Of a stretch of DNA of 64,000 nucleotides, positions 2,396 to 18,048 are shown one piece after another. Source of the stretch: Candidatus Aeolococcus gillhamiae (lineage in GTDB: Bacteria > Chloroflexota > Dormibacteria > Aeolococcales > Aeolococcaceae); contig QHBU01000153.1 of assembly GCA_003244045.1 (NCBI GenBank), positions 67-64,066 of the forward strand, given 5' to 3'. The stretch's first letter is position 1, and every line of letters begins with the position of its first letter. The notes beneath the pieces were generated by a model, which was not told where the DNA came from, searched no databases, and saw only the letters and a program-made list of their open reading frames with translations. The position numbers and the translations under genes were made by a program.

Positions 2396-2414
2396 GTCGG
2401 GAAGGGGAGATTCG
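2396..2414. repeat. attL: 19-bp direct repeat GTCGGGAAGGGGAGATTCG (copy of the tRNA-Pro 3' end)
   Basis: Identical to 18049-18067. Flanks diverge immediately on both sides (g/t upstream, c/a downstream). Confidence 0.8.
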
Positions 2415-2425
2415 CGTCAAACTCA

Positions 2426-2515
2426 CTCAGCGCGTCTCAGCGGTTCTCAGAGTGCCCTTGCGTACCAAGGATTTCGGCGTTTGGCCGTCTCAGCACGTCT
2501 CACCGTTTCTCCGAG
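2426..2515. repeat. two imperfect 27-bp direct repeats just inside attL
   Basis: R1 2426-2452 is ctcagcgcgtctcagcggttctcagag. R2 2489-2515 is ctcagcacgtctcaccgtttctccgag. They match at 23/27 positions with starts 63 bp apart. Confidence 0.5.
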
Positions 2516-2517
2516 CG

Positions 2518-2539
2518 TTGTCGTCAGCTACTGTCGTCA
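2518..2539 (+). promoter_or_regulatory. tandem pair of 9-mer CTGTCGTCA (putative arm-type recombinase/Xis site, left arm)
   Basis: ttgtcgtca at 2518-2526 (1 mismatch) and ctgtcgtca at 2531-2539 (exact), 13-bp period. The same motif pair occurs at 17974-17994 and, inverted, at 14084-14105. Confidence 0.5.
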
Positions 2540-2593
2540 GGCGAGTTCGCGGCCTTAGTGGGCGAGAGCCACGACAGCGAGCTACGCCTCGCC

Positions 2594-3682
2594 TCAATCC
2601 GACGCAGGAAGGCGCCAGCCAACCCGGGTCAGGCGCCCCCACGCCGAGTGAAGGTCGCGGCGGAAGCGCCATTTGCTCCGGGGGCCGTCGTCGTGGCTGC
2701 CATACCTGCCGCGCTTGCGGCCGGGGCCGGCGTTCCACTGCTTGCGCCAGTCTTCCCAGGGTGGCTTGCCATCGCCGTACCCGTGGTCGAGCGCGAACCG
2801 GGCGAGCGCCTGGGACTTGTCGTCTAGCGGACGGACGCGTACGCCGCTGTAGATCGTCGCCCTAGCGCGACCATAGGCGGCTGCAACGTCGGAAGGAGTG
2901 AACGCGGGGTCGACCTCTAACACCAGGCGGGTCGTCGTGTCGGTGATTTCACCTCGATGCAGTCCTCGAAGCTCGGGCTTCCATCGGAACACCCAAGGGA
3001 CCGGCGAGTCGCCGCCGCATACGAGCCAGCGCGTCGCATCCCACGGGCTCCAGCGGTAGCGATCGGCCAACTCTGCGGCCACCTTGGCGACTTCGCCGAG
3101 CAGGCTGCCAGCCGGGACCGCCACGACCCGAACCTCGTCGCCATCTCGATACCACAGCTCTGGGAGCGTCCCCAGGTGTGGGACGAGGGCGGTACGAACC
3201 GCGTCAGCATCGGCGTCTGCCGCGATGTTCAATGCTCGGTAGTAGCGGTCGATGATCCATGTCACCAGCGCCGCGGGTTCCGGCGTCCCGGCTACCTCAC
3301 GGGTGGCCTTCTCCCTACCAGCCTTCCTGAGTGCGGCCCGCCGGGATAAGCCGTCGATCTTCGCCCGGAGGTGACGAACTGACAGCTCCTGTTCGGCCAG
3401 TTGGGTATACACGCGGGCGAGCTGCCGGATTCGATCCTCCTGCCACCCCTTCGGCGCGCGTTCAACATGATCGATCGGCTGACGAGTGGTGCGGAAGACT
3501 CTGCGATGCTTTCTGACCGCTTCGGCGGCCCCCTTCGCGCCGCCCTCCTGCCACTCGATGTCATCCGTGTAGCTCTCGTCCTCCAACCAAGCCCACACGG
3601 CGTCGGTTATGGGGCCCCGTAGCTCCCGCTCTATCTCGGCGCGACAATCCGGCGACATAAGCCTATCGTAACCCGCCGGCAT
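2594..3682 (-). CDS. hypothetical element protein, divergent from the Xis-type gene (candidate regulator)
   Basis: Track ORF 2594..3913 trimmed to the in-frame ATG at 3682 (MPAGYDRLMSPD...). The longer form would fully overlap the HTH gene on the other strand. No family recognised. Confidence 0.6.
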   Translation of the reverse strand: MPAGYDRLMSPDCRAEIERELRGPITDAVWAWLEDESYTDDIEWQEGGAKGAAEAVRKHRRVFRTTRQPIDHVERAPKGWQEDRIRQLARVYTQLAEQELSVRHLRAKIDGLSRRAALRKAGREKATREVAGTPEPAALVTWIIDRYYRALNIAADADADAVRTALVPHLGTLPELWYRDGDEVRVVAVPAGSLLGEVAKVAAELADRYRWSPWDATRWLVCGGDSPVPWVFRWKPELRGLHRGEITDTTTRLVLEVDPAFTPSDVAAAYGRARATIYSGVRVRPLDDKSQALARFALDHGYGDGKPPWEDWRKQWNAGPGRKRGRYGSHDDGPRSKWRFRRDLHSAWGRLTRVGWRLPASD

Positions 3683-3694
3683 AGTCTCTGAGCC

Positions 3695-3907
3695 ATGGAG
3701 AGCACCACCGCACCCCGCAGCGCCACCGACACCCCACTTCGACTCCTCGTCCCTGTTGCTGAGGCGAAGCGCCTCCTCGGCGACATCTCGACCGCGACCT
3801 TCTACAGGCTTACGGGGTCGGGTCGCCTGCGTTCCGTCCGCGTAGGTGGGAGGCGCTTCGTCCGCCGTGGCGACCTCGACCGTTTCGTCGCCGATCTGGA
3901 CGAGTAG
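3695..3907 (+). CDS. excisionase-family / MerR-like helix-turn-helix DNA-binding protein
   Basis: LLVPVAEAKRLLGDISTATFYRLTGSGRLRSVRVGGRRFVRRGDLDRFV matches the HTH_17/Xis pattern (L..eAa.lLg.s..T.yrl...G.l....iG.r..i....l..f). Confidence 0.7.
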   Translation: MESTTAPRSATDTPLRLLVPVAEAKRLLGDISTATFYRLTGSGRLRSVRVGGRRFVRRGDLDRFVADLDE

Positions 3908-5386
3908 GTGCAAACACCCCCGGGCGATACCGCCACAATCGAGCGCGAGTACAGCGTCGGGCCCAACCTGCGCCTACGCGACGAAAGGGCACTCGAGCTT
4001 GCAGACCTGGCGCTCGCTGGATCGGCCGCACCAGTCTGCGACGTTGCCCGATTGCTGGGTGCGGTTCGTGCAGTCCTGCGGCGCTATCTCGTGCTGCCCG
4101 GAGACCACTTCTATGACGTGGTGACACTGTGGATCGCTCATGCTCACGCTGTCGCGGCCGCGGACACTTCACCGCGCCTGATCTTCAAAAGCCCCGAGAA
4201 GGAGTCGGGCAAGACCCGCTGCCTCGAGCTGCTCGAGTTGCTAGTCCCGGCGCCGCTGACAGTCGTTAGCGTCACCACGACCGCCATCTTCCGACTCCTC
4301 AAGCAGGAGCAATGCACGGTCCTCCTCGATGAGTGCGACGCCGTCTTCAGTCCCAAAGCCGGTAATTACGAAGACCTGCGCGCTCTGTTGAACGCCGGCT
4401 ACCGGCGTGGCGCCACTGTTGCCCGCGTTGTCGGTGACGGCAAGCGGATGCATGTCGACCGGTTTCCCGTCTTCGCAGCCACCGCGCTTGCCGCCATCGG
4501 TGATCTGCCAGACACCATCGAGTCGCGGTCGATCATCGTGCCCATGCGCCGCCGCGCACCCAGCGAGGCCGTCGAGAAGTTCCGGCACCGCCGCGTCGAC
4601 CTCGAACTCGCGGATCTGCGCGAGGGATTGGTTGAGTGGTCCGCAGCTCAGAGCGAATCGCTGGGCAACGCGAGGCCGTCGATGCCGGAAGCCCTCGAGG
4701 ACCGGGCCGAGGACTGCTGGGAGCCGCTGATCGCGATCGCTGATCTCGCCGGCGCGGAATGGGGTCGGCGAGCTCGCGAAGCAGCCGTGACGGTGGTCAA
4801 GGGTCGGGTAGCGGAGGATGCCAGCGTCGGCGTGCGCCTTCTCGCCGACCTCCGCGTGGTCATGGATGGGCACGACCGCATGCCCAGCGCCGCACTGTGT
4901 GCTGCGCTCAACGGTCTCGAGGAGTCCGGCTGGAGTGCGTGGAACGACGGCAAGGGCATCGGCCAGCGCGACCTGGCCAGGCGGCTGAAGCAGCACCGCA
5001 TCGCCTCGCACAACATCAAGCTATCGGACGGCACTGTGCCCAAGGGGTACTTGCGCACCGACTTCTCGGATGCATGGTGCCGCTACCTTCGGGATACCCC
5101 CGCTACCTCCGCTACCACCGCTACCCGGGTACGAGTTGACGTAGCGCCTGTAGCGCATGTAGCGGACACCACGGGAGAGGACTTCACCGTCATTGACGCG
5201 CTGTTCGCGCCAGACGAGGACCGTCCGCTGTCCGACGTCATCCACCGCCCGGCCTGTCCGCGATGCGGCAGCACTGCGGCGTCTATGCTGCGAGCCGGCG
5301 ATGCCGCCGCACTCTGCGCACGCTGCACGCCCGAGCCGCAGAGCCGGTGGCGAGGCCCCCGAGGCGGTCGCGTCATGACCGGATGA
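3908..5386 (+). CDS. DUF3631-like P-loop protein (replication/primase-associated protein of actinobacterial integrative elements)
   Basis: Walker-A-like SPEKESGKTRCLELLELL and Walker-B-like TVLLDECDAVF. The stretch ALLNAGYRRGATVARVVGDG...FPVFAATALAAIGDLPDTIESRSIIVPMRR is typical of DUF3631. C-terminal Zn-ribbon CPRCGS...CARC. GTG start abuts the stop of the HTH gene. Confidence 0.7.
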   Translation: MQTPPGDTATIEREYSVGPNLRLRDERALELADLALAGSAAPVCDVARLLGAVRAVLRRYLVLPGDHFYDVVTLWIAHAHAVAAADTSPRLIFKSPEKESGKTRCLELLELLVPAPLTVVSVTTTAIFRLLKQEQCTVLLDECDAVFSPKAGNYEDLRALLNAGYRRGATVARVVGDGKRMHVDRFPVFAATALAAIGDLPDTIESRSIIVPMRRRAPSEAVEKFRHRRVDLELADLREGLVEWSAAQSESLGNARPSMPEALEDRAEDCWEPLIAIADLAGAEWGRRAREAAVTVVKGRVAEDASVGVRLLADLRVVMDGHDRMPSAALCAALNGLEESGWSAWNDGKGIGQRDLARRLKQHRIASHNIKLSDGTVPKGYLRTDFSDAWCRYLRDTPATSATTATRVRVDVAPVAHVADTTGEDFTVIDALFAPDEDRPLSDVIHRPACPRCGSTAASMLRAGDAAALCARCTPEPQSRWRGPRGGRVMTG

Positions 5387-5555
5387 CCCCACGCACGTGC
5401 CGGAGAGCTGGTCAGGCTCACAGTTACCTAACCCGCTACAAACACACAGGCACGTGGTTGAGCCCGATGGCGCCGATGTATATCCCCGCGTGAGGACCGC
5501 TTCTGCCGCGCACTTTGCCGCCCCGCGCTCACACATTCACCGAGGAACACAGATC

Positions 5556-6017
5556 ATGCCAAGAATTGCCAAGTCCCGCGGCGGACCGCGAGGGCCCGTT
5601 CCGAAGCGATCCGACCAGAGGCTGGGTCACGGCAGTCCATCGCGGATGCAGACCGTCCGGGCTCCGGCGACCTCGCCGATCAAGGTTCTCGAGCCGGACC
5701 CCGCGTGGCACCCATTGATTCAGCGGTGGTTTCGCTCGTTGACCACCTCCGGTCAGCACGTCTTCTACGAGGATTCCGATTGGGCGCTCGCGGCAGTCAT
5801 GGCTGAGCGTGAGAGTAAGAACCTGCTCAGCCCCCGGCCGTCCGCCCAGGCGTCGGCCCTCTTTCTGTCGGTTCAGAGCGACCTTTTGACAAGCGAGGGT
5901 GCTCGACGGCGGCTGCGAATCGAGTTGCAGCGCGACCAGCCGGAGGAGCCGCCGAGCGTTGCGATCATGCGGAACTATCGGGCGCGTTTGGGGGGTGACC
6001 ATGCCGCTTCCGCGTGA
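5556..6017 (+). CDS. phage terminase small-subunit-like protein
   Basis: ATG 5556 with SD GAGGAA at 5542-5547. The N-terminal GPRGPVPKRSDQRLGH and later W.PL...WFRSL..SGQ...YEDSDWA pattern resemble actinophage TerS proteins. This recognition is from memory. Confidence 0.5.
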   Translation: MPRIAKSRGGPRGPVPKRSDQRLGHGSPSRMQTVRAPATSPIKVLEPDPAWHPLIQRWFRSLTTSGQHVFYEDSDWALAAVMAERESKNLLSPRPSAQASALFLSVQSDLLTSEGARRRLRIELQRDQPEEPPSVAIMRNYRARLGGDHAASA

Positions 6018-6306
6018 CCTCGATCTCACCCCTCACGGCGGCCTCGACTCAACCATCCGCGATCTCTTCGCGCAGCGCGCTTCCGAGATCGCAGCAGTGG
6101 ACGAGGAGGCGTTGCCCGACTTGATCGCCGCAGCCGGCGCGACACTTGCCAACGGAGACGAGGATAACCTAGCCAGAGTCGCTGCGGGCTTGCTTTGGAT
6201 GGCATTGCGACATCGTCAACTCGGAGCGAGCGATCTCGAGGTCCATGCCCTCCTTCGGCGTTGGGCCGACATCCTCGTTCAAGACACAGGAGGCGAAAGC
6301 GAATAG
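6001..6306 (+). CDS. hypothetical protein (101 aa)
   Basis: ATG 6001 overlaps the end of the TerS-like gene by 17 nt. Acidic, Ala/Leu-rich and coding-like. No family recognised. Confidence 0.45.
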   Translation: MPLPRDLDLTPHGGLDSTIRDLFAQRASEIAAVDEEALPDLIAAAGATLANGDEDNLARVAAGLLWMALRHRQLGASDLEVHALLRRWADILVQDTGGESE

Positions 6307-6309
6307 GCG

Positions 6310-6693
6310 TCAGGCGCGCACTGCTATTGCCTCGTCCGCGAGTCGAGCCAGAACGCTGAGCGCCGCTAGATGCTCCAAGGCTTCCTGCTCGCCCGGCTGC
6401 TCGTGGAAGTGTGTCGCAAGATTGTCGATGAACATCGTGCACCCGACGCCGAGATGCAGCGCCCCTCGTGTGCGCTTCTGCCAATCCTCCGTCTACTTGG
6501 TACTTGCCGAAGCGGAGGCGGGGCCGCCCAGGTCTCGGATCGTCGCTGCTGAATGCCGCCTGAATAGACGGCTTCCTGTTACGTCGTTCCTGCCAAGCCT
6601 CGCCCGAACGACGATGTCCAGTTGGGTGGCCGCGGCCTGTATGGCCTCGCGGCTGCCGGCTGCGTTCCACACTACCGGGTGAAGGCCCGTCAC
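6310..6693 (-). pseudogene. TIGR02391 (Hypoth_Ymh)-family gene interrupted by an in-frame TAG
   Basis: One frame reads MTGLHPVVWNAAGSREAIQAAATQLDIVVRARLG...STK, then TAG (6493-6495), then TEDWQKRTRGALHLGVGCTMFIDNLATHFHEQPGEQEALEHLAALSVLARLADEAIAVRA and a stop. The LHP start, A..A...L...VR, G..L and the (F)I.N..TH...EA.E.L...S.L.RL layout fit the family. Confidence 0.5.
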
Positions 6694-6768
6694 TGCGAGG
6701 GACGGGAGCGAGGAATTTCTCTACGAGGGTTGCGGAGGAGGGAAGAAATCCGGGCATCATTACGCCCG

Positions 6769-9700
6769 ATGACCACTCGGTATGACGTCAGCAAGGTCCC
6801 CCTCCAGGGCGGTTACGTCGCCAAGCAGTGCCCCGTGCGGGCTCAGAACGACGCGATCGTGCCGGGCGTGCGCCTGGCGCCGGACACATTCCAGCAACGG
6901 CTGATCGATCAGGGCGTTGCGTTCGAAACGGATGTGGTGGCGGAGCTCGTGGCCGCCCAACCGGCCGCCGTAATCATCGAAGGTGGCGGGGAGATTGCAG
7001 AGGTGGCGACCCTTGAGGCAATGCGCGCCGGGGCACCACTTATCGTGAATGCTCGGATGTCCGATCCGGCAGGGCGGAGGGTGGGCAAGCCCGATCTGCT
7101 AGTACAGGCCTCCGCCGGCTACGACGCAGTAGACATTAAGTGGCATCACGCGTTAGAGGTGGCGAAGCCTTCGGGTAAGGATCCTTCTGCGCTGGTCTCA
7201 GCTCTCTCAGCACCGACCCTCATGTTAGCCACGAATGACCCCGCTTTCGTTCCACGGAAACACGAGGGAGATCTGCTCCAGCTAGCCCACTACCGGCGGA
7301 TGCTGGAGACCGTCGGTATGGCGGCGCCCGGGGATCGCGTCGCTGGGATTATTGGTACGGAGCGGCGCGTCGTGTGGCACGACCTGGATGCAGCCATCTG
7401 GCGCACGCCGTCGCTTTCGGAGAAGCACAAACGCCGCAGCACCATGGAGCGATACGACTTCGAGTTCGACTTCCGGCTCGACATCATATCGGTGGCGCAT
7501 CAGCACCAGAACGACCCGTCGGTGGATCTACTAGTGGTGCCTGTGCGCTGCGGCGAGTGTCCGACTTGTCCATGGAATGACTACTGCCGACCAATACTCG
7601 AAACTCCGCCCGGAGATGTGAGTCTGCTCCCACGATTGGGCTGGACGCAGTGGAAGGCGCATCGCGAACGTGGCGTAACCAACCGTGCGGAATTGGCCGC
7701 GCTCGACATGCGAACCGCACAAATCGTCGCCGCCAAACTGGATGTAGCGGGACTAATAGCGACAGTTGCCGGCGTGAATCCTGCTACTCCGATTCTGGAG
7801 CTCGGTGCGAGCTGGTCTAAAGGTAAGCGGTTCGAACAGCTGCAACAACTTGGAATAGCAACAGTGGGCGACGCCCTCTCGTTGGATGCGTCAACTGCCC
7901 GATATTCAGACGCGCCTATTCCCTCGCTACCTGACCAGATCGACATGGCACGTGCCGCACTGGGACCCGAATCTGTGTACCGGCGACGTGGAACGGATGA
8001 GGTGATTGTGCCTCGCGCTGATATCGAGATCGATGTTGACATGGAAAGCACAGAGCTGGGTGTCTACATGTGGGGAACGTGGCTCTCATCGGGAACAAAC
8101 GTCGGGGACGCCTTGTTGCACGCGCTGCGTACGCGAGGAGCATCGATGGAACTAGTGGAAGGCTATCGGTCGTTCGCGACCTTTGATGAACTGACGCCAG
8201 AATCAGAGGCCAAGAATTCGCTGACGTTCTGGCAGTGGCTCCAGCGGATTCGTGAGTATTGCCACCAACAGGGCCTAACGGTCCGTGCGTTCTGCTGGAA
8301 TGAGTCCGCGGAGAACCAGTACCTGCGCAACATCGGTCTGGCCTGGGACGTTGCCGATGACGTTGAGGCCTTCATCACGTCTGGTGAGTGGGTCGACTTG
8401 CTCAGGGTCTGGGATGCGCAGCTGGTGACAGGCGGAGCGAGCGGTCTGAAGGTCGTGGCGCCGCTAATCGGCTTCCACTGGGACGTAGATGAGGCAGGTG
8501 GTGGGGAGTCCATGGTCGTGCATGACCGGGCCGTGAACGGGCCCGATGCAGCGAGTGCCCAGGAGTGGTTGCTGGCCTACAACCGTAGTGATGTGATGGC
8601 AACCCGAGGGGTCCGCGAGTGGATGACCAATACAGTCGTGCCCGCGGCCGAGGAGCTAGATCACGCCGCGGGAATTAGCTCCGCTCCTGGCGCCGCCACC
8701 GTCGCCCCTACAGTGTCCTCGGCCGTGGCGTCCCCAACTGGACCTGCGATCCAGCTACCCTCCCACCAGGTGGCCTCGCGGACTGCTTTCGGAGGAGCTA
8801 TGACCGCCGCTGAGTTCGCACGTAAGTGGATCGGGAGCACTCGTGGCGAACGCGCTGCATCACATGAGCATTTCATGAACTTGTGCAGCCTCCTTGGGCA
8901 ACCCACACCGAACTCTGACCAGACCGGTGATCGGTATGCCTTCGAAAAGGGTGCCGCGAAGGTCGAGGGAGGAGAGGGGTGGGCGGATGTTTGGAAGAAG
9001 GGTCATTTCGCATGGGAGTACAAAGGCAAGCACAAGGACTTGGAAGCCGCCTACCGGCAACTCCTCCTCTACCGTGAGGCGTTGGAGAATCCACCCCTCC
9101 TTGTCGTCTGCGACCTGGACAAGTTCGAGATCCACACCAACTTCACGAACACGGCTAAGGAGGTCCACAAGTTTTCACTCCAAGACTTCCTGGACGGGCC
9201 GGCGCGGCCCATGCGGCTCCTCAAGGCAGTTATGGAGGCACCGGACTCCCTCAAGCCGTCTGCGACTCGGGAAGAACTGACAGAAAAGGCAGCGGGACAT
9301 TTCGCAGAACTCGCGGTCGGCCTTCGCGGCAGAGGTTACGACGCCCAGCGTGTTGCTCACTTTCTCAACAAGCTGGTGTTCTGCATGTTTGCCGAGGACT
9401 CTGGTCTCCTTCCCGCCGGCCTGATCGCTCGGGTCACGAAGATCGGCGATTCGCTCTTCGCCGACCCGGCGGAAGTACGTGCCGCGATGGCCGAACTATT
9501 TTCCCGTATGTCCAGTCAGGGAGGCCGTTTCGGAGCGGAGCGTATTCAGTGGTTCAACGGCGGTCTTTTCGACGGCGACGATGCCCTTGAGCTGACATCC
9601 GGTGAGCTCGACGTCGTCTCGACGGTCGCTGCTCTGGACTGGTCGCAAATTGAGCCAGCAGTCCTTGGGACTCTCTTCGAACGCGGGCTTGACCCGGACA

Positions 9701-11583
9701 AGCGCAGCCAGATGGGCGCGCACTACACGGATCGCATCAGTATTGAGCGAGTCATTGCCCCGATGGTAATCGAACCACTAGAGAGAGAGTTTGCTCTTGC
9801 TCAGCGGGCGGCTCGGGAAGCACTCGGCGATATCTCTATCACGGGATCCCTCAGTGGTTCCGCGCTCGGCACCCGCACGAGAGCCATCCAGCGTGCTGAA
9901 TCGATCGTGACCAAATTCCTGAAACGGCTCGACGGCGTGCGTGTGCTTGACCCGGCATGTGGCTCGGGCAATTTTCTGTACGTCGCCCTCCAAGCGCTGA
10001 AGGATCTTGAGAGTCGGGTCATCCTTTGGGAGTCGATGGAGCTGGGGACCCCCATACGGTTCCCTGTCCTCGGCCCGCACAATCTTCTCGGAATAGAACT
10101 CAACCCGTATGCCGCCGAACTCGCAAGGGTCGCCATCTGGATCGGCGAAATCCAATGGATGCTGGGCAACGGTTTTGCCTATCTACGAAACCCGGTACTG
10201 CGCCCCCTCGACAACATTGAGTGTAGGGACGCCGTAGTCGCGTTCGATGGTGATGGCGCGCCCGGTGAACCCCGGTGGCCGCGGACGGATTTCATCATCG
10301 GTAACCCACCATTTCTCGGCATCCGCAAGATGCGTTCAGCGCTGGGTGATGCATATGTCGACGCCCTTTTCGAGGTCTACGCGGGCCGGGTCCCGCATTC
10401 CGCAGATCTGGTGTGCTACTGGCACGAGAAGGCTGGCGCGATGATTGCCGCAGGAGAATGCACGTACGCCGGATTGCTGGCTACCCAATCAATTCGCGCT
10501 GGCGCGAACCGGGTCGTCCTCGAGCGGATCAAGACCACGGGTGACATCTTCATGGCATGGGCCGACGAACCTTGGATCGTCGAGGGTGCCGCAGTGCGCG
10601 TGTCGATCATCGCCTACGACGACGGCAGAGAAGGTCAACGAACCCTCGATGGCAAGGCCGTCACAACAATCAACTCCGACCTAACGGCTGAGATTGATCT
10701 ATCACGAAGCCAGGCGCTTCCAGAGAATGGAATGATTGCCTTCCAAGGGCCCGTGAAGGTGGGCCCCTTCGAGATTCCGCACGTATTGGCACGGCAGCTT
10801 CTCGATTCGCCTAACCCGGATGGACGCAGCAACGTGGACGTTATCCGCCCCTGGATGAACGCTAAAGACATAACGGGTCGGCCCCGGGACATGTTTATCA
10901 TCGACTTCGGCGAACTATCCGAGGAGCACGCGTGCTTGTATGAGGCGCCGTTTGAGTACGTGCGTGAGCATGTGCGACCAGTGCGCGTGACTAATCGCCG
11001 CGCGCGAAGAGCTGAGCGGTGGTGGCAGCATGGTGAGACGGTTCCTGGATTGCGTGCAGCGATGGTCGGGCTCCAGCGATTCTTCGTCACTCCGCGCGTG
11101 ACGAAGCACCGCATATTTGCCTGGGTCGACGCGCGAACCCTTCCCGATACACGACTCATAGCATTCGCTCGACAGGACGACTACTTCTTTGGTGTTCTTC
11201 ACTCGCGTGTCCACCAGGTGTGGTCGTTGCGTACCGGTAGCCAGCACGGCGTGGGTGCAACCTTCACGTATACGCCCACTACGACATTCGAGACATTTCC
11301 ACTTCCTCACGGTACAAATGAGCAGACCCGAGCGATCGCCGAAGCCGCCCAGAGAGTGAACGCGCTCCGGGAAGGGTGGCTCAACCCGGCGAGTATGTCG
11401 GAGTCGGAATTGAGGATGCGCACGCTCACGAACCTCTACAACGCGATGCCGACCTGGCTCATGCAAGCACACGAACGCCTCGACCGGACAGTGCACGATG
11501 CATATGGGTGGTCGTATCCGCTGGATGATGGCGAGATTCTGGCTCGCCTCTGGTCACTGAACGTTGAGCGCTCGTCGGCATAA
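6769..11583 (+). CDS. 1604-aa fusion: TM0106/RecB-Cas4-like PD-(D/E)XK nuclease + DEDDy RNase-H-fold exonuclease + MmeI-family type IIL (IIG) restriction endonuclease/N6-adenine methyltransferase
   Basis: Track ORF 6622..11583 trimmed to ATG 6769 (MTTRYDVSKVPLQGGYVAKQCPVR). Nuclease 1: GKPDLLV...YDAVDIKWH plus Cys cluster CGECPTCPWNDYC. Exonuclease: IEIDVDMES, CWNESAENQYL, YNRSDV. MmeI-like part: ADVWKKGHFAWEYK (D-x9-E-x-K), LVFCMFAED, FNGGLFD, LDWSQIEPAVLGTLFE, MGAHYT, VLDPACGSGNFL, IIGNPPFLG. Confidence 0.85.
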   Translation: MTTRYDVSKVPLQGGYVAKQCPVRAQNDAIVPGVRLAPDTFQQRLIDQGVAFETDVVAELVAAQPAAVIIEGGGEIAEVATLEAMRAGAPLIVNARMSDPAGRRVGKPDLLVQASAGYDAVDIKWHHALEVAKPSGKDPSALVSALSAPTLMLATNDPAFVPRKHEGDLLQLAHYRRMLETVGMAAPGDRVAGIIGTERRVVWHDLDAAIWRTPSLSEKHKRRSTMERYDFEFDFRLDIISVAHQHQNDPSVDLLVVPVRCGECPTCPWNDYCRPILETPPGDVSLLPRLGWTQWKAHRERGVTNRAELAALDMRTAQIVAAKLDVAGLIATVAGVNPATPILELGASWSKGKRFEQLQQLGIATVGDALSLDASTARYSDAPIPSLPDQIDMARAALGPESVYRRRGTDEVIVPRADIEIDVDMESTELGVYMWGTWLSSGTNVGDALLHALRTRGASMELVEGYRSFATFDELTPESEAKNSLTFWQWLQRIREYCHQQGLTVRAFCWNESAENQYLRNIGLAWDVADDVEAFITSGEWVDLLRVWDAQLVTGGASGLKVVAPLIGFHWDVDEAGGGESMVVHDRAVNGPDAASAQEWLLAYNRSDVMATRGVREWMTNTVVPAAEELDHAAGISSAPGAATVAPTVSSAVASPTGPAIQLPSHQVASRTAFGGAMTAAEFARKWIGSTRGERAASHEHFMNLCSLLGQPTPNSDQTGDRYAFEKGAAKVEGGEGWADVWKKGHFAWEYKGKHKDLEAAYRQLLLYREALENPPLLVVCDLDKFEIHTNFTNTAKEVHKFSLQDFLDGPARPMRLLKAVMEAPDSLKPSATREELTEKAAGHFAELAVGLRGRGYDAQRVAHFLNKLVFCMFAEDSGLLPAGLIARVTKIGDSLFADPAEVRAAMAELFSRMSSQGGRFGAERIQWFNGGLFDGDDALELTSGELDVVSTVAALDWSQIEPAVLGTLFERGLDPDKRSQMGAHYTDRISIERVIAPMVIEPLEREFALAQRAAREALGDISITGSLSGSALGTRTRAIQRAESIVTKFLKRLDGVRVLDPACGSGNFLYVALQALKDLESRVILWESMELGTPIRFPVLGPHNLLGIELNPYAAELARVAIWIGEIQWMLGNGFAYLRNPVLRPLDNIECRDAVVAFDGDGAPGEPRWPRTDFIIGNPPFLGIRKMRSALGDAYVDALFEVYAGRVPHSADLVCYWHEKAGAMIAAGECTYAGLLATQSIRAGANRVVLERIKTTGDIFMAWADEPWIVEGAAVRVSIIAYDDGREGQRTLDGKAVTTINSDLTAEIDLSRSQALPENGMIAFQGPVKVGPFEIPHVLARQLLDSPNPDGRSNVDVIRPWMNAKDITGRPRDMFIIDFGELSEEHACLYEAPFEYVREHVRPVRVTNRRARRAERWWQHGETVPGLRAAMVGLQRFFVTPRVTKHRIFAWVDARTLPDTRLIAFARQDDYFFGVLHSRVHQVWSLRTGSQHGVGATFTYTPTTTFETFPLPHGTNEQTRAIAEAAQRVNALREGWLNPASMSESELRMRTLTNLYNAMPTWLMQAHERLDRTVHDAYGWSYPLDDGEILARLWSLNVERSSA

Positions 11584-12809
11584 CAATCAGGGCTTGGCGA
11601 GAAGCCTCCGCAGCATACTGGTCGCCGCGAGGCGTCATCGGACGGAGGTCATCCAGGGCTTCAGTCGCTTCGGAGTGGGCCGCCGATCATCGCCGTTCTT
11701 AGCCTCTCGTACGTGCCGTCTCAATTCGGCCAATCCAGCCGAAGCCCCTTGGTTGGTCCCCGGCACGCAGGTCGTTCTGAAGTTCTTCCAGGGCGACCCG
11801 CCGATACTACCCAGCCGGCAGGGCCGGTTTGAATCCGAGCTGTCGAGGCGCTTCGCTCTGTCGGGGCTCGCCAACGACGTTGATGATTCCGTGCCACTGG
11901 CCGCGCGGAAAGAAAGCGATTCCGTCGTACTCAACGCGACCGACGCCATCGGGCTCGCTGACGGCCTTTTAAAGAACGAGATTGCCGTCGTTGCGCGAGT
12001 CGACATTGACCTCTTGCTCGATCACGTGGGGTCCGGCGAGGACGCGCAACCTGAACGTCGTGACGGCGCCAGTCGCAAATACAGGTCCTTCCACTAGGGC
12101 GCACTAGGAGATACGGCATCCGTCGTGGTCGCCGGGCGAGCGCCGACGTCCCCGCGCTGGTTCGCCGTGGTCCGCAACTTTCCCACCGATCTCAGGATCG
12201 AGGGACGCGCCGTTGCGCGGCATTTGCTGATTCAGCTGCTGCAACAGGTCGAGGCCAGACTGGTAGTCGGCAGCCCGTCGGCGCAGTCCGGTGGCGGCGG
12301 CTGCAACGTCACGGGTCACGCGGAACTCTCGAGGCAATCGATGCACCTGTCCAGCGACGCCAGGTCACCGACGTCGGCGTTCATAGCCCTGCACCTGTCG
12401 CCTAAGAGGCGAGCCTCAGTCAGCACCTCGTACAGAATTGGCGAAACTGCTCGTCTGCACGCCAGGCGTACTCACGTCGCGCCCCAGCGGCATCGCGTCG
12501 TGTTTGCTGCTCGTGCTGCTGCTTGTTCGTCCAGATGGAGGCGCCGAACCCGATCAGCGCACCCACTGCCACCGAAACGATGGTCGACCACCGCTCCACC
12601 CGCCGGCCTACCCGCAACCCCAGCCAACGCAGGCTCCGCCGCCGCGCAGAAAGCCGCAGAAGGAGAGCACATAGATCGAGACGCGCACCGCCGCGCCGAT
12701 AGCAGTAGCAACCTTCGCCCAGCGGCGAGGACGCTTACCTGCGTGGTAAACGCCGATCGGAAGAGTCGAGACGGTCACAGCAACGGTCGGTCCAGCTCAC
12801 CGCTAGCGA

Positions 12810-13253
12810 TCATGTCTGCGGAGGAAGTGCCGCAGTCGCCGGCGGCGGCTGTCCCTCAACGAACCGAAAGGGGACGCTCTTCAGATGCTGGCCATCGACG
12901 CTGACTTCAAAGCTGTAACGCCCCGCGGCGGGAATCGGCAAACCATGTAGCCCAACGGACAATTGGGCCGGGACTTCCCAGTTGGGAGGATGGCCCTCAG
13001 GCACGGTTCCAGGCCCAAGGTCGACCTGTAAGGGCGGCGCGAAATCGGCGCCATCCTCATCCCAAAAGCGGACCTCAAGCCTGTGCTGAGCAGCGACTTC
13101 GGTCCGGTGGACCATGACCCGGAGGGTTAGCGCACCGATGAACGTGGTGGGGAAGGATGGCCGCCAACTGGTGTCCCATCCGCCGCCCAGCACGTAGCTC
13201 AACCCCGCCTGAATCTCGCTCGAATTTGAGAGGATCGCCCAGTCGAGTCTCAT
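12810..13253 (-). CDS. hypothetical protein translationally coupled to mazF (147 aa)
   Basis: Track ORF 12810..13361 trimmed to ATG 13253 (MRLDWAILSNSSEIQAGLSYVLGGGWD...). The ATG overlaps the mazF TGA in an ATGA at 13250-13253. Looks beta-rich. No family confidently recognised. Confidence 0.6.
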   Translation of the reverse strand: MRLDWAILSNSSEIQAGLSYVLGGGWDTSWRPSFPTTFIGALTLRVMVHRTEVAAQHRLEVRFWDEDGADFAPPLQVDLGPGTVPEGHPPNWEVPAQLSVGLHGLPIPAAGRYSFEVSVDGQHLKSVPFRFVEGQPPPATAALPPQT

Positions 13254-13606
13254 TCGGCTTCCGGCGACGGGAGATCCAGGAATTGGGCCAAAGCCTCTTC
13301 GATCTCCCTCCTCAGGACGGGGTCCTCCACGCGCCCGCGCCTCCGGACGATCCGATCGCAATCGATGGTTCGAATCTGTTGGATGAGGATGACACCGCGG
13401 TGAACTATGCCCGGGAGATCAGGAAGCGCGACCTCGGATGGGTATTTCGGCGGCTCCCGTGAGGTTATTGCGACCACCGTCGCCATTCCCGCCCGCCGAT
13501 TGAAACCATCATTGGAAACCACGATGGCCGGTCGCGTTTTGCCCTGCTCATGCCCACGCGGGACGCCGTAGTCCACATCCACGACGTCCCAGCGACGACC
13601 GTCCAA
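13250..13606 (-). CDS. mazF: MazF/PemK-family type II toxin (endoribonuclease)
   Basis: WDVVDVDYGVPRGHEQGKTRPAIVVSND...VVAITS...EVALP...GVILIQQIRTIDCDRI matches the PemK/MazF signature. TTG start. Confidence 0.8.
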   Translation of the reverse strand: MDGRRWDVVDVDYGVPRGHEQGKTRPAIVVSNDGFNRRAGMATVVAITSREPPKYPSEVALPDLPGIVHRGVILIQQIRTIDCDRIVRRRGRVEDPVLRREIEEALAQFLDLPSPEAE

Positions 13607-13611
13607 GGAGC

Positions 13612-13806
13612 CTATTCGTCCTGAAGGACAGCCTCGGCGTCAGCGGCCTCGGCCAGTTGCAGGAGCTCGGCCTGCTCCGCACGCCACGCCCGATCGGTCT
13701 CGACGGCCGCCCAAGGGTCCACGCCGTCAGCCCGATTTTCGCCTGTTTGGACGCGTTCCGGCGCGCCGGTCGCCGAAAAGCTGAAGTGAATAGTTCCTGT
13801 CGTCAT
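13612..13806 (-). CDS. putative cognate antitoxin (64 aa)
   Basis: Small acidic ORF ending 5 nt upstream of mazF. Assigned by position only. Confidence 0.55.
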   Translation of the reverse strand: MTTGTIHFSFSATGAPERVQTGENRADGVDPWAAVETDRAWRAEQAELLQLAEAADAEAVLQDE

Positions 13807-14082
13807 TTGTTGCGTGTTCCTCCGGCTCTTCCAAGATTAGTGCTGGAGTGCCTGCCGCCGACTCCCCCGTGACAAGTCTGATGCAATTGCCACCCTCCCG
13901 AGTTCCTTGGCGGGAACTGTACGCCCCGCATCGCATCACTAGCCGTGGTTCCAGTCGGCGCCTGGGCGGGGGGCGCAGCACTCACCTCCCGAGCAAAGAA
14001 CTGTGTCTTCAAGGCAGGCGGGAATATCACCTTCCCGACCAAATGGCATCAGCCCTATTCGATTGTCGGCTTCGCCGACCGA

Positions 14083-14111
14083 TTGACGACAGCTGTTGAC
14101 GACAGTAGACT
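14083..14111 (+). promoter_or_regulatory. near-consensus sigma-70-type promoter upstream of int, overlapped by a tandem TTGACGACAG repeat
   Basis: TTGACG (14083-14088), a 17-nt spacer, then TAGACT (14106-14111), about 95 nt upstream of the int ATG. TTGACGACAG occurs at 14083-14092 and 14096-14105 and is the reverse complement of the arm 9-mer. Confidence 0.4.
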
Positions 14112-14205
14112 GCTCATGAGACGGCATGAGCCACCCAGGGAGGCCGGCGTTGCGGGCACCAGTCCAGCCCGTGATCGGACACCCTGACCAAGAGGGCACT
14201 CGACA

Positions 14206-15402
14206 ATGGCCAGGCGTACTGCCAGCCCTGGACGCCGCACCCGCGCCAATGGCGAGGGCACCGTCAGTCGGCGGCAGGACGGCCGCTGGGAGGCCCGCGT
14301 CTTCGTCCGCCAGGATGGCCGCTGGGTCCGACGCGCTCTCTACGCGAAGACCAAAGCCGAGGCCAGCCGCAAGCTGCGCGAGGCGATCACGGCCCGCGAC
14401 AAGGGGCTCCCGATGCCCAAGGGCTCAACGACCGTTGCCGCCTTTCTGGAGGAGGAGTGGTGGCCCGGGGTCGCGCCGTCGCTCCGGCCGGGGTCGCAGC
14501 GTCGCTATCACCAGGTGGTCACCGACTACCTCGTACCCGCTTTGGGTAGGCGTCGCTTGGTCGACCTCCAGCCCGAGCACCTTCAAACCCTCTACGGACG
14601 GCTGCTAGCCGAGGGCAAATCGCCTGCCACGGTTCGCCTCGCTCACGCCGTCCTCCACCGGGCGCTGAGCCGCGCGCTGTCCTGGGGCAAGGTTGTCCGC
14701 AACGTGGCTGACGCTTCCATGGTCGATTTGCCCCGGAGTCCGCGCCGCGAAGCGGCCCACTTCGACGCCCAGGCAGCTCGGCTCGTCGTCGGTGCTGCTC
14801 AAGGGGACCGACTGGAGGCGCTGTGGGCGCTCGCCCTCACCGCTGGCCTGCGCCGTGGCGAGCTGCTCGCCCTCCGATGGGATGCCGTCGATCTTGACCG
14901 CGGGGTCGTCGAAGTCCGCTACACGCTCCAGCCCGACGGAAGCCTCGCCGAGCCGAAATCCGCGAGCTCGCGCCGGGCTGTCCCAATAGCCGATGCCGTC
15001 ATTTCCGTCCTCCGCTCTCACATGAGCAGCCAAGCCGCCGAGCGGCTTGAGGCGGGGAACCAATGGCAGGAACCTCGCCTCTCTGTAGCCGGTAGCAAGG
15101 TGACCCTCGACGGCGGACTCGTCTTCACTACCCCTCTAGGCCGGCCGCTTCCGATCACCTCGATGGTGAAAGCGTGGGTCGCCGTGCTCGGGCGGGCCGG
15201 GGTGCCCATCATCCCCTTCCACGGCACCCGCCATACCGCCGCATCCCTGCTCGCCGACGCTGGGGTTCACCCCACAGTGGCTCAGGCCCGGCTCGGACAC
15301 GCGACGTCGGCGATGACGCTTGAGCGATACACCCACGTCGGCGAGGCTCAGCGGCGAGGGGCGGCTGACGACGTCGAGCGGTTGCTCGGGCTGAGCAGCT
15401 AG
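14206..15402 (+). CDS. int: tyrosine recombinase / phage-type integrase
   Basis: N-terminal GEGTVSRRQDGRWEARVFV (arm-binding/AP2-like motif). Catalytic LTAGLRRGELLALRW (Arg), HGTRHTAAS (H-x-x-R) and LGHATSAMTLERYTHV (His...Tyr). Confidence 0.9.
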   Translation: MARRTASPGRRTRANGEGTVSRRQDGRWEARVFVRQDGRWVRRALYAKTKAEASRKLREAITARDKGLPMPKGSTTVAAFLEEEWWPGVAPSLRPGSQRRYHQVVTDYLVPALGRRRLVDLQPEHLQTLYGRLLAEGKSPATVRLAHAVLHRALSRALSWGKVVRNVADASMVDLPRSPRREAAHFDAQAARLVVGAAQGDRLEALWALALTAGLRRGELLALRWDAVDLDRGVVEVRYTLQPDGSLAEPKSASSRRAVPIADAVISVLRSHMSSQAAERLEAGNQWQEPRLSVAGSKVTLDGGLVFTTPLGRPLPITSMVKAWVAVLGRAGVPIIPFHGTRHTAASLLADAGVHPTVAQARLGHATSAMTLERYTHVGEAQRRGAADDVERLLGLSS

Positions 15403-15404
15403 CA

Positions 15405-15725
15405 GTGTGCAGCCGGCTAATCGCCATCGCCCTACTCATTGCCGGGATCAGCGGCATGTGGCAAGTGAGCCCTGCCCTCGGGGTGGTCGGCATCTTGGGT
15501 CTCCTCCTAGTCCTCGCGGCTCGCGGTCGTCTCCAGTGGCAGCGCGCCGAGGCTGACGCCCAGCGGATGCGCGCCGGCACCCCAACTCCCTGGGTCAAGA
15601 CCTACCGTCGGGCGAGGGAGTACGCACAGGACCGCCGAGCGGATGACCGCATTCGACGGCCGCGCTCAGGCGAACGTCACTACGGGCTTCGCAGCAACAG
15701 GATCGTAATCACGTGGGATCGGTGA
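15405..15725 (+). CDS. small membrane protein (2 TM)
   Basis: GTG start 3 nt after the int stop. Hydrophobic LIAIALLIAGISGMW and ALGVVGILGLLLVLAA segments. Confidence 0.5.
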   Translation: MCSRLIAIALLIAGISGMWQVSPALGVVGILGLLLVLAARGRLQWQRAEADAQRMRAGTPTPWVKTYRRAREYAQDRRADDRIRRPRSGERHYGLRSNRIVITWDR

Positions 15726-15735
15726 TCCGGTGGCG

Positions 15736-15749
15736 GAGCCGATCGGCTC
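15736..15749. terminator. GC-rich palindrome between convergent genes (weak bidirectional terminator candidate)
   Basis: GAGCCGATCGGCTC is a perfect 14-nt palindrome (5-bp stem, 4-nt loop). No U-tract. Confidence 0.25.
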
Positions 15750-15777
15750 TAGCGTCGCCTCGGGTCCATCCAGTTGA

Positions 15778-16551
15778 CTAGGCGAAGAATCCGGTCACGC
15801 CAACAAGAAATGTCGGGCACGCGGCCCCGTACAAGGACACAGTAAAGGTGAGATTCCCGCCCGGTGCAACGCCATTATTCTGATCGGCAAACCCCCCGGA
15901 CGTGTTGACGATTGCCCCGGTCGCATCGAAGCAGTAGACGTTCACGTTGTACGGACCCTGCAATGCAGCTCGTGTCGCGTTTGTTGCCGTGCCCACGATG
16001 CTACCTCCTAACAGCTTCGCTTCCGTCACCTTCGCCGTCGCTGTGTTGTACGAAGACGTGTCGGCCGGGACGGTCTCGGAGGTAAAGGCGTACACCGCGG
16101 TGTCAGGAATCTGCGCCGCCGTTCCGATCTGGAAGTAGATAAAGGAGAGAGCGGCCTCCCCGGGAGCCAACTGCGATGGGTCGGTCTCTTGACTCTGACC
16201 AGTCGCGCGGAGGGTTCCGGTGGCGTCGCGAGCCGTCGCTGTCACGTCGATGTGGGAAACGGCATGCGCCGTGTTGTTCCTCAGAACGATTGGAATGTCC
16301 GCGGCGCCACTCGGATCCCGAAGGAGCTTCCCGACATATACAGCGTCGATTTTGCCCGGGTGTCCGGCGGGAAAATTGGGCTTTGCAGTTCCGGCGAGCA
16401 GAGCACCTGGGTTGAATGTCGAAGGCGCGCTCGCGCTGCTTGAAGACGTCACCGGACTACCTCCGGTTGCAGTCATAGTGCTCCCGCCGCAGGCGCTTAG
16501 TGCCAACACAGCCCCGGCGGCGGCAGGCCCGACCAGCTGGCGCAGTCTCAT
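15778..16551 (-). CDS. lipoprotein of unknown function
   Basis: Signal peptide with lipobox AVLALSAC-GGS, a Ser/Thr-rich linker, then a beta-rich domain. Confidence 0.7.
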   Translation of the reverse strand: MRLRQLVGPAAAGAVLALSACGGSTMTATGGSPVTSSSSASAPSTFNPGALLAGTAKPNFPAGHPGKIDAVYVGKLLRDPSGAADIPIVLRNNTAHAVSHIDVTATARDATGTLRATGQSQETDPSQLAPGEAALSFIYFQIGTAAQIPDTAVYAFTSETVPADTSSYNTATAKVTEAKLLGGSIVGTATNATRAALQGPYNVNVYCFDATGAIVNTSGGFADQNNGVAPGGNLTFTVSLYGAACPTFLVGVTGFFA

Positions 16552-16602
16552 TAATCGGGAGATAGTAGGACTCCTTCGGCGGTTCCGCTCAGCCTCCGAC
16601 CG

Positions 16603-16740
16603 CTAGTCGATGAGCCGTGCCTTCAGCCGGGCGAACTCCTCCTCGGACAACGCACCCGCCTGACGCAGCGCGACTAGATTACCAACCTCATCGGCAAAGA
16701 TGAGCGGGGTGCGGCTGCGTCGTCTGAGCCCAAACGTGCT
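16603..16740 (-). pseudogene. orphan SHOCT-domain C-terminal fragment
   Basis: The frame reads ...PLIFADEVGNLVALRQAGALSEEEFARLKARLID then stop, a SHOCT-like motif. There is no ATG/GTG/TTG between it and the upstream in-frame TGA (16741-16743). Upstream sequence to ~16960 switches frames. Confidence 0.35.
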
Positions 16741-17054
16741 TCAGGAAGAACGTCATCCACCCCAATTGCATCCACAGGCCCTGACGCCCGTGCCAAGATC
16801 GCCCAATGCGTGGCGGCTCCAGGGTATTTGCCCTGGGCCCACACTCAACCGATGGCCGGTCAGATGCGCATCACTCATCCTGCGCGGTCGTCGATCCGCC
16901 TGGATGACGTGGTCGCGAACCAATGAGATACCACAGCGACTTCACCCGGAGCTGCGCCTCCGCGGCTGGCTCATTGTGGAAGTTGGCTGGCAAGTTGATC
17001 GGCCGTCAGCCACCGCCGAGGACGCTGGGCCAGAAGGTCCAAGGGTGCGGTTGC

Positions 17055-17516
17055 ATGATGATCTTCCCCGTGTTCTCTTTGACGTTGTGGCTGCTCAAGT
17101 GGATGGTGATGGCTATGGCGGCGCTAGCACTGATAACGGCAGCGACGGGCTGCAGCCTAGCGGCTGGGGTCGGGCTGATCGTGGATCTTTTCCCCAGCCA
17201 GGCCAAGAAAGCCTGGAGTCCACCACAACCACGGATTCCACCGCCGCCCGGCCGTTCGGTTGCTTCCAAGGTGGCGCCCCAGGCGGCTCCTGACGTAGTA
17301 AGTGACCCACCGCCCGTCGCAGCTGGCCCCCCTGTTGCATACAGACTTGAATGGGCAGTGAAGAATGCACTTGCGGCCCAGGTGATAGCTGGCCAAAAGC
17401 ATTACCGCGTCAACTGCCTCCACTGCGGACAGTTGCTTGAGGTTCCGACAGGGAATATCCGCTGCCCGCTGTGCCGCAAGCGGAACAGGGTCAAGGCACC
17501 GCCTGAGTCAGGTTAG
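17055..17516 (+). CDS. membrane-anchored zinc-ribbon protein
   Basis: Track ORF 16923..17516 trimmed to ATG 17055 (MMIFPVFSLTLWLLKWMVMAMAALALITAATG). Pro-rich linker. C-terminal CLHCGQLLEVPTGNIRCPLCRKRN. Confidence 0.5.
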   Translation: MMIFPVFSLTLWLLKWMVMAMAALALITAATGCSLAAGVGLIVDLFPSQAKKAWSPPQPRIPPPPGRSVASKVAPQAAPDVVSDPPPVAAGPPVAYRLEWAVKNALAAQVIAGQKHYRVNCLHCGQLLEVPTGNIRCPLCRKRNRVKAPPESG

Positions 17517-17537
17517 CCCGAGCAACCGCTCGACATC

Positions 17538-17795
17538 TTGAGCCGCGCGTTCGGCGTGTTCGAGCTAGCCGCGAAGGGTTCTGGAAGCCACGCAACTGTC
17601 GTCATCCGAACAAACGGCGAGGCGGCGGAGACGGGCTGCTTCACAATCCGAGACCTCTCCGCGGCTGAGGTCCGGGCGAAACTTGCCGGGTGGTTGCGCG
17701 GTCGAGACATTCCTTGGTACGAGGACCAAGAGGGTGAGGGCCCGGCTAACGCCACCTCTGCGACACGCTCTCCGCCGGCGTGGGCGACTAGTTGA
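17538..17795 (+). CDS. hypothetical protein (85 aa)
   Basis: TTG-start ORF with coding-like composition. No family recognised. Confidence 0.35.
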   Translation: MSRAFGVFELAAKGSGSHATVVIRTNGEAAETGCFTIRDLSAAEVRAKLAGWLRGRDIPWYEDQEGEGPANATSATRSPPAWATS

Positions 17796-17994: not shown

Positions 17995-18048
17995 TTCGGC
18001 CCATTCTCGTCAGAAATCCCTTGTGTTATAAGGGTTCTCTAAAGACAT

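Follow-up and report, generated by a model that had tools for sequence, protein, structure and literature searches.

The window analysed here is a 64,000-nt stretch of DNA from the soil bacterium Candidatus Aeolococcus gillhamiae (Dormibacteria; assembly GCA_003244045.1, contig QHBU01000153.1, positions 67 to 64,066 of the forward strand). It carries, on its plus strand, one gene in which a nuclease of the TM0106/COG2251 family is fused to a restriction-modification (R-M) enzyme of the MmeI family. Both halves are known kinds of protein; combined, they form a Type IIL R-M enzyme to which a dual-exonuclease module is added. The parts of the gene, with coordinates in the window and amino-acid (aa) positions in the protein, are as follows.

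6769..11583, plus strand: whole coding sequence (TM0106-type dual nuclease plus MmeI-type Type IIL R-M enzyme), 1604 aa plus stop
6769..7638, plus strand, aa 1-290: predicted Cas4-like PD-(D/E)XK nuclease domain (invariant columns, AlphaFold2 model, Foldseek)
7639..7962, plus strand, aa 291-398: two tandem four-helix repeats (GVTNRAELAALD... / LGIATVGDALSLD...; AlphaFold2 secondary structure)
7963..8631, plus strand, aa 399-621: predicted RNase-H-fold DEDDy 3'-5' exonuclease domain, PolB-exo-like (PF13482)
8632..8799, plus strand, aa 622-677 (about 56 residues): Ala/Ser/Val/Pro/Thr/Gly-rich linker, predicted to be disordered from its composition and predicted local distance difference test (pLDDT) scores
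8800..9327, plus strand, aa 678-853: MmeI_N PD-ExK endonuclease domain with D740-x9-E750-x-K752 (PF20464, 39 bits against a cut-off of 27)
9349..9570, plus strand, aa 861-934: MmeI_hel helical spacer (PF20465, 39.9 bits)
9895..10620, plus strand, aa 1043-1284: MmeI_Mtase, gamma-class N6-adenine methyltransferase with the SAM motif DPACGSGNF1061-1069 and the catalytic NPPF1179-1182 (PF20473, 96.8 bits)
10621..11580, plus strand, aa 1285-1604: MmeI-type target-recognition and C-terminal domains
Motifs of the nuclease module: AKQC aa 18-21; GKPD109; VD122IK124; QLAHY171-175; CGECPTCPWNDYC261-273; IDVDMES421-427; SAENQYL513; YNRSD604-608
Motifs of the MmeI half: ADVWKKGHFAWEYK739-752; FNGGLFD929; GAHYT983; DPACGSGNF1061; GNPPF1178

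A single reading frame spans both halves

The open reading frame (ORF) runs from the ATG at 6769 to the TAA at 11581-11583 (4815 nt, 1604 codons) with zero internal stops, as compared with 54 and 60 stops in the alternative forward frames of the same interval. An earlier note on this DNA had described one uninterrupted 1604-codon frame; the ORF scan bears this out, the frame being open through the linker, and all the motifs quoted there occur in the 1604-residue translation at the residues listed above. The GC content of the first, second and third codon positions (GC1/2/3) is about 0.66/0.47/0.68 per 200-codon block, with a GC3 of 0.63-0.71 that is uniform over both halves and the linker; this constancy across the junction argues that the frame is coding throughout and is not made of two differently composed pieces stitched together. 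The start codon is backed by homologues with an equivalent MPTRYDVS/MTTRYDVS N-terminus. In the AlphaFold2 model, pLDDT falls below 50 from residue 637 onward, in keeping with a disordered linker.

The N-terminal half resembles a complete TM0106-type dual nuclease

To judge from its sequence relatives, the segment formed by residues 1-621 is a complete TM0106/COG2251-type protein, in which a Cas4-like Fe-S PD-(D/E)XK nuclease is followed by helical repeats and a PolB-exo-like DEDDy exonuclease. The NCBIfam model TIGR03491 (“TM0106 family RecB-like putative nuclease”) matches at E=4e-26, with 92.0 bits against a cut-off of 97.45 that is thus not reached. Full-length similarity to more than 1100 clusters of the family, and to RefSeq proteins named TM0106, argues that the segment belongs to the TM0106 family in the broad sense. 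The order of domains is that of the family, a Cas4/DUF83-like PD-(D/E)XK domain and then a PF13482 RNase-H-like exonuclease domain, and the TM0106/COG2251 architecture proposed in the earlier note for these two parts is upheld by the TIGR03491 match and the full-length relatives.

The two domains fare differently in profile searches. The exonuclease passes Pfam: PF13482 (RNase_H_2) scores 28-31 bits against a cut-off of 22, which confirms the DEDDy assignment made earlier, and the catalytic set D424-x-E426, E515, D543 and Y604-x3-D608 is invariant. The nuclease domain has no Pfam match, as residues 1-304 alone return nothing, not even Cas_Cas4 or PDDEXK_1 at E<=10, and searches of the PDB with the nuclease module retrieve nothing, whether with the single sequence or with a 35-sequence profile. 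Since these sequence searches found nothing, the Cas4-like assignment rests on structure prediction and motifs. With the 35-sequence alignment as input, AlphaFold2 models the whole module at a pLDDT of 93 and a predicted template modelling score (pTM) of 0.90, a confident result; a model of residues 1-290 alone has a pLDDT of 91.8. The closest PDB neighbours of the latter model in Foldseek are the Cas4 structures 7mi5_A and 7mi4_A (probability 1.0, E ~1e-3), with 8d3l and 4r5q, after which come MGME1, Dna2 and RecE; the whole-module model additionally matches RNase T, 3'hExo and DexA.

The motifs agree with this picture. The predicted catalytic residues of the Cas4-like domain are D109, (D/E)122-x-K124 (D122 in the window's protein) and Q171-x3-Y175, and the predicted ligands of the Fe-S cluster are C21, C264, C267 and C273 (C21 plus C264-x2-C267-x5-C273). 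The Cas4/AddB signature residues and the four cysteines are invariant in the 35 family members, and across the same alignment the active-site residues of both nuclease domains are invariant or near-invariant. The N-terminal PD-(D/E)XK nuclease with a Cas4/AddB-type Fe-S layout that the earlier note had claimed is therefore sustained by the AlphaFold and Foldseek results and the invariant signature residues, and residues 1-290 are, on the model, Cas4-like in fold and motifs rather than a Cas4 orthologue. The helical repeats, in which G302, D313 and A317 are conserved, look by eye like helix-hairpin-helix DNA-binding units.

The exonuclease domain of the window's protein also has an insertion of about 14 residues (LLHALRTRGASMEL, aa ~445-458, 8101-8142), which is missing from the other five aligned members (P0002-P0006) and is the sole low-confidence stretch inside the AlphaFold2 model (pLDDT 61-65).

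The C-terminal half is an MmeI-type enzyme

The C-terminal ~930 residues are, as read from their matches to Pfam, PADLOC, MmeI (PDB 5HR4) and stand-alone homologues, a complete, ordinary and self-sufficient Type IIL enzyme of the MmeI family. PADLOC's REase_MTase_IIG model (PDLC03627) scores 884 bits. The sole PDB sequence match is 5HR4 (E=9e-45, three stretches spanning MmeI residues 12-888), in whose alignment D740, E750 and K752 fall on the catalytic D-x9-E-x-K of MmeI and NPPF falls on NPPF, so that the full-length MmeI-family half described in the earlier note stands. In the last 320 residues, the MmeI_TRD and MmeI_C models score just below the cut-off of 27 (PF20466, 22.3 bits; PF20467, 23.7 bits); residues 764-888 of 5HR4 align with this part (aa 1285-1604), and the PADLOC IIG models extend to residue 1600. 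Residues 678-1604 also have stand-alone counterparts of about 920 aa on proteobacterial and Geobacter plasmids, which align with them at 45-51% identity; these bear the annotation MmeI-type or DNA methyltransferase, and their genes are solitary and lie beside toxin-antitoxin modules.

A methylase of a DISARM (DrmMI) or BREX (PglX) system was considered and rejected, the PADLOC matches to these being partial and far weaker than those to IIG; the protein has an intact nuclease motif of its own, and no partner genes (DrmA/B/C, or BrxA/B/C/L and PglZ) were found among the neighbours.

The fusion has arisen repeatedly

Seven further distinct fusion proteins are encoded on independent contigs. A word-indexed search of 5.8 billion proteins retrieved four other full-length fusions (P0002, P0003, P0004 and P0005), P0064 and P0091 came in addition from an exhaustive HMMER comparison with 1.84 billion cluster representatives, and a metagenome scan added the gene at locus L109 and recovered P0091 again, as L164. 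With the window, this amounts to eight independent contigs from different ENA, JGI and NCBI assemblies, all with in-frame fusions and with differing linkers. The L109 gene and P0064 are 76% identical in the MmeI module and 89% in the nuclease module.

The nuclease modules of these proteins fall into clade A (the window's protein, P0002, P0003, P0004 and P0005; 54-63% mutual identity) and clade B (P0064, L109 and L164; 64-89%); the two are 36-42% identical to one another, and each is closer to stand-alone proteins (51-55%). The MmeI modules form three lineages that are 23-33% identical to each other: type 1 in the window's protein, P0002, P0003 and P0004; type 2 in P0005 and P0091, 46% identical to the stand-alone P0010 and 23-27% to type 1; and type 3 in P0064 and L109. 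The combinations found are A+1, A+2, B+2 and B+3, and in P0004 the order is reversed, with the MmeI module first, the nuclease module last and an unrelated linker between them. Because two nuclease clades and three MmeI lineages are mixed and one order is reversed, the sequences require at least three to four independent joining or module-exchange events. Since the linkers are unrelated in sequence and both domain orders occur, what counts seems to be the tether and not a fixed interface.

Throughout six aligned full-length fusions, the active-site residues of the three nuclease sites and of the methyltransferase are all invariant:

Residues invariant in six fusions: D109, K124, Q171, Y175, C264, C267, C273, D424, E426, E515, D543, Y604, D608, D740, E750, K752, DPACGxGNF, NPPF

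We read the repeated joining and this invariance as clear selection for an active TM0106 module kept physically attached to an active MmeI-type enzyme.

Stand-alone relatives and rarity of the combination

Relatives of the TM0106 module number 1146 at E<=0.001 among the 1.84 billion cluster representatives (50% identity clusters). Nearly all of them stand alone, have 600-650 aa and match the query over about residues 1 to 625 at up to 53% identity. Actinomycetota, Dormibacterota and Chloroflexota are rich in TM0106/COG2251 proteins. In 185,579 species-representative genomes, the 80 best TM0106 loci include not one with an MmeI-type gene, either fused or in the vicinity, and two of the 80 best metagenome loci are fusions; an unfused version with the two genes adjacent occurs neither at those 80 genome loci nor at the 78 non-fusion metagenome loci. 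No fusion is found in 72,556 plasmids, eight of which, all actinobacterial, carry a TM0106 gene. The nuclease module is absent from 50,697 phage records, and IMG/VR gave a single 24% match.

The combination had been unfamiliar to the reader who made the earlier note, and it proves to be rare: it is represented by a few metagenomic proteins and by no paper, plasmid, phage or species-representative genome among those searched. Searches of 8.3 million full-text papers found no description of a TM0106 plus MmeI architecture and thus no already described family of this kind, although REBASE or InterPro may have catalogued it earlier; one automatic JGI annotation names both halves of a fusion. No functional study of TM0106/TIGR03491/COG2251 was found in the same literature.

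Locus L042, from a Nanopore metagenome-assembled genome (MAG) of Acidimicrobiaceae, has the closest genome-derived nuclease module (65% identical to that of the window's protein) and was considered as a possible fusion. It was rejected, being a stand-alone gene (9827-11876) followed by unrelated ORFs; close to its 3' end the gene changes frame, and this frameshift is probably a sequencing indel. Two of the plasmid-borne stand-alone genes, L168 (Mycobacterium avium p1-JPH1) and L169 (Pimelobacter simplex pA-N39), have as neighbours a cytosine methyltransferase, a HerA-like helicase, DprA, a GIY-YIG nuclease and an ADP-ribosylglycohydrolase, a DNA-processing or establishment-type setting that might bear on the native role of TM0106. 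Other extensions of TM0106 proteins are about 200 C-terminal residues in P0048 (830 aa), about 260 N-terminal residues in P0006 (882 aa) and an N-terminal helix-turn-helix in P0128; the family therefore accepts other fusion partners.

Genomic settings of the fusion genes

The fusions are located on mobile or defence DNA, unlike the stand-alone TM0106 genes. In the window, the gene lies within a 15.65-kb integrated element bounded by an exact direct repeat, whose features are listed below.

2396..18067, no strand: integrated element carrying the fusion gene, 15.65 kb, with an exact 19-nt direct repeat
2396-2414 and 18049-18067: the two copies of the repeat, GTCGGGAAGGGGAGATTCG
18049-18124, minus strand: tRNA-Pro(cgg), whose 3' end is the second repeat copy
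3908-5386: DUF3631 protein
5397-6017: small terminase, actinophage-like
13250-13606, minus strand: MazF/PemK toxin
14206-15402: tyrosine integrase

No virion genes besides the small terminase are seen in the island, and its combination of integrase, DUF3631 protein and small terminase makes it look like a phage satellite or an island of the kind of the phage-inducible chromosomal islands (PICI). With a GC3 of 0.68, the fusion gene lies under both the island genes (0.72-0.80) and the host genes (0.80-0.92), which suggests that the gene was recently acquired. At L109, the fusion lies between a coupling protein of a type IV secretion system, a Prim-Pol protein and a RecD-like helicase. At L164, it is beside an N6_Mtase gene, a Schlafen/AlbA_2 protein, a “Beta protein” and an ISL3 transposase. 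The P0004 gene (L003, 469-7734) directly follows a gene for a 738-aa fused AriA-AriB protein (PARIS-like), an indication of a small defence island.

Next to the fusion gene itself, the ~1.2 kb downstream (11584-12800) holds no convincing gene. The translations of ORFs 11564-12097 and 12125-12904 are rich in Arg, Ser, Pro and Ala and not protein-like; they have no Pfam, PHROG or PADLOC match and no counterpart at the other fusion loci. A tblastn search of every island ORF against all the fusion loci gave no common neighbour. Because no neighbour is common to the fusion loci and these downstream ORFs are non-protein-like, the fusion gene is treated as solitary. A promoter and terminator scan of 5900-13000 was uninformative, with signals at or below shuffle expectation.

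Elsewhere in the island, a 64-codon ORF (13612-13806, minus strand) immediately upstream of the MazF/PemK toxin gene is probably its antitoxin. A DUF6941 ORF (12810-13361) overlaps the 3' end of the toxin ORF by about 110 nt on the same strand, and because of this overlap the true start of DUF6941 is probably later than the ORF suggests. Outside the island, a flanking gene for a heterodisulfide-reductase-like Fe-S oxidoreductase (32077-34875) has homologues from Dormibacterota that are 84-90% identical. A 33-nt tandem repeat of about five copies (34638-34823) at its 3' end encodes a Pro/Glu-rich tail. The homologues listed for this 932-aa ORF have 686-850 aa and cover 72-92% of it, its ends not being common to them; translation may start later than the ATG at 32077.

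A proposed role in processing the ends made by restriction

The reading that we favour, and which we judge to have about an even chance of being right, is that a Type IIL enzyme cuts DNA and a module tethered to it resects or degrades the resulting ends, a form of cooperative end-processing. For both halves, the enzymatic activities and their cooperation are what we infer. By analogy with MmeI, the MmeI half would recognise an asymmetric site and N6-methylate one adenine, thereby marking host DNA, and its PD-ExK domain would cut unmodified DNA about two helical turns away. The flexible linker would hold the TM0106 module near the fresh double-strand ends, which the Cas4-like and DEDDy nucleases could then engage so as to resect or degrade both strands. 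The break would thus become unrepairable, with religation, non-homologous end joining (NHEJ) and recombinational rescue all blocked, and the invader would be destroyed without need for a host enzyme of the RecBCD/AddAB type; such independence may be useful for a gene that moves on mobile elements between distant hosts. Ends are the proposed target because both nuclease folds belong to classes acting on them. Nucleases of the class of Cas4, AddB, Dna2 and MGME1 thread a single strand by its end and degrade it, and DEDDy domains remove nucleotides in the 3'-5' direction; in E. coli, RecBCD degrades DNA after restriction.

The recurrent independent fusions lend this end-processing idea real support. 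Precedents that support it as well are Cas4-type accessories of DNA-cutting effectors: UvrD-Cas4 adjoins Type III R-M and solo-Cas4 adjoins R-M systems (PMC5704561), and ACE1, a Cas4-family nuclease, boosts interference by the prokaryotic Argonaute pAgo (PMC12094033). Several points weigh on the other side. Fusions are a tiny minority of the TM0106 family; the stand-alone genes show no general link to R-M at the 80 genome and 78 metagenome loci, and their neighbours are variable and mostly metabolic, with no conserved partner. The literature searches found no activity measurement for any TM0106 protein. As regards the assignments themselves, the TIGR03491 score is slightly under the NCBI cut-off, and the TM-scores of the Cas4 structural matches are modest (0.3-0.5).

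The long flexible linker is also compatible with two activities that merely share their expression. In one alternative, which is unlikely, an autonomous R-M enzyme and an autonomous repair or housekeeping nuclease occupy one chain and the fusion only ensures their co-inheritance and co-expression on mobile elements. Both halves do have abundant, self-sufficient stand-alone relatives, the linker is disordered as well as long, and the chromosomal surroundings of the stand-alone TM0106 genes are ordinary. However, repeated independent fusion, module swapping and circular permutation are hard to explain without a benefit of proximity, and since no unfused version with adjacent genes was seen at the genome and metagenome loci inspected, co-expression seems not to be what is selected. 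A further alternative is an artefact or a decayed gene (an assembly chimera, a frameshift joining adjacent genes or an inactive relic). The window looks like a metagenomic contig, a single one of 64,617 nt, and the related MAG locus L042 carries a frameshift, but the eight independent contigs with in-frame fusions and different linkers, the uniform codon GC over the junction and the intact catalytic residues together make such an origin hardly conceivable.

In another alternative, the nuclease module would work before or instead of the MmeI cut, by loading on nicks or on free ends of incoming linear phage or conjugative DNA; it would then deliver the R-M enzyme to foreign DNA, or would do most of the degrading while the MmeI part mainly marks self and non-self by methylation. 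Nucleases of the Cas4/Dna2/AddB class, to which the Foldseek matches point, are generally known to need free DNA ends. Type IIL enzymes, moreover, cut inefficiently at single sites (10.1101/2021.01.06.425610; PMC4833311). Against this, the D-x9-E-x-K of the MmeI part is invariant in every fusion, so the module's own cut appears to be under selection, and no sequence sign was found that the nuclease module senses methylation; this alternative is distinctly unlikely. Quite improbable, finally, is a module that limits self-damage by processing accidental cuts at transiently unmethylated host sites for repair. Resection nucleases do initiate recombinational repair, as textbook AddAB and RecBCD illustrate. 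Type IIL enzymes methylate one strand only, and protection by hemi-methylation alone is a known liability of the MmeI family (PMC4833311). Yet the protein has neither a helicase nor a Chi-like control element, the host would already possess repair nucleases, and the mobile carriage and defence neighbours point to offence rather than repair.

Comparison with known systems

MmeI recognises an asymmetric site, in which it methylates one adenine, and cuts unmodified DNA at a fixed distance (PMC4833311). Cleavage about 20/18 nt from such a site, together with protection through methylation of a single strand, characterises the family. Like the MmeI family of Type IIL (IIG/IIC) enzymes (5HR4; PMC4833311) and DrdV (10.1101/2021.01.06.425610), the fusion has the same domain order in residues 678-1604, which can be aligned with MmeI from end to end, and it unites its activities in one polypeptide, no methylase gene of its own kind lying apart in the vicinity. 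In contrast, its additional 621-residue N-terminal dual-nuclease module has no equivalent in described MmeI-family enzymes, and its MmeI half is only about 25% identical to MmeI itself. COG2251 appears in the literature as an uncharacterised family in which a DUF83/Cas4-like PD-(D/E)XK domain is joined to an RNase H-fold domain resembling PolB exonucleases (PMC3985635, family F.13; PMC3424549). Residues 1-621 match stand-alone members of TM0106/COG2251/TIGR03491 over their full length and have the same architecture; normal members, however, stand alone, have about 620 aa and lie in variable, mostly non-defence contexts, whereas here the module is fused to an R-M enzyme.

With Cas4, AddB, Dna2, MGME1 and EXO5, the nuclease domain shares the motif set D, (D/E)xK, QxxxY and one N-terminal plus three C-terminal cysteines; unlike in Cas4 and its kin, the domain is larger and has inserted beta-hairpins. 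A CRISPR-associated Cas4 was rejected, as the window has no cas genes or CRISPR array and the protein no Pfam Cas_Cas4 match at E<=10; the 64-kb window contains no interspaced repeats, and Rfam finds only the tRNA. UvrD-Cas4 with Type III R-M (PMC5704561) and ACE1 with the long-A pAgo (PMC12094033) likewise place a Cas4-like nuclease with a DNA-cutting effector that distinguishes self from non-self; they are separate genes or subunits without a DEDD exonuclease, whereas the fusion is covalent and its partner is a Type IIL enzyme. Degradation by RecBCD or AddAB after restriction is similar in concept, namely restriction followed by exonucleolytic destruction, and the Type ISP enzyme LlaGI (PMC2790903) also unites several DNA-processing activities in one R-M polypeptide. 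Unlike these, the fusion lacks a helicase or translocase motor, and degradation would come in cis from two small nuclease domains.

Implications

The fusions may define a subclass of single-chain “restriction-degradation” enzymes, in which cleavage is covalently coupled to the destruction of both strands at the ends, helicase-free and independent of RecBCD/AddAB; this is a tentative proposal, which we hold to be somewhat more apt to fail than to stand. A Type IIL enzyme that destroys its target instead of merely cutting it would behave unlike MmeI. The fusion suggests that mobile elements could make restriction irreversible by carrying their own end-degrading module, a capacity that would matter where the host has NHEJ or lacks RecBCD. 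It would also be a compact model for the coupling of cleavage and resection and a testable example of restriction and degradation coupled in cis.

For TM0106/COG2251, a widespread family of predicted nucleases of no known role, the fusion is a first functional lead, a link of the Rosetta-stone type. If the restriction-degradation proposal is true, the family, with its more than 1100 clusters at 50% identity, would consist of DNA-end-degrading nucleases, and its stand-alone members would be end-targeting defence enzymes or enzymes that process double-strand breaks.

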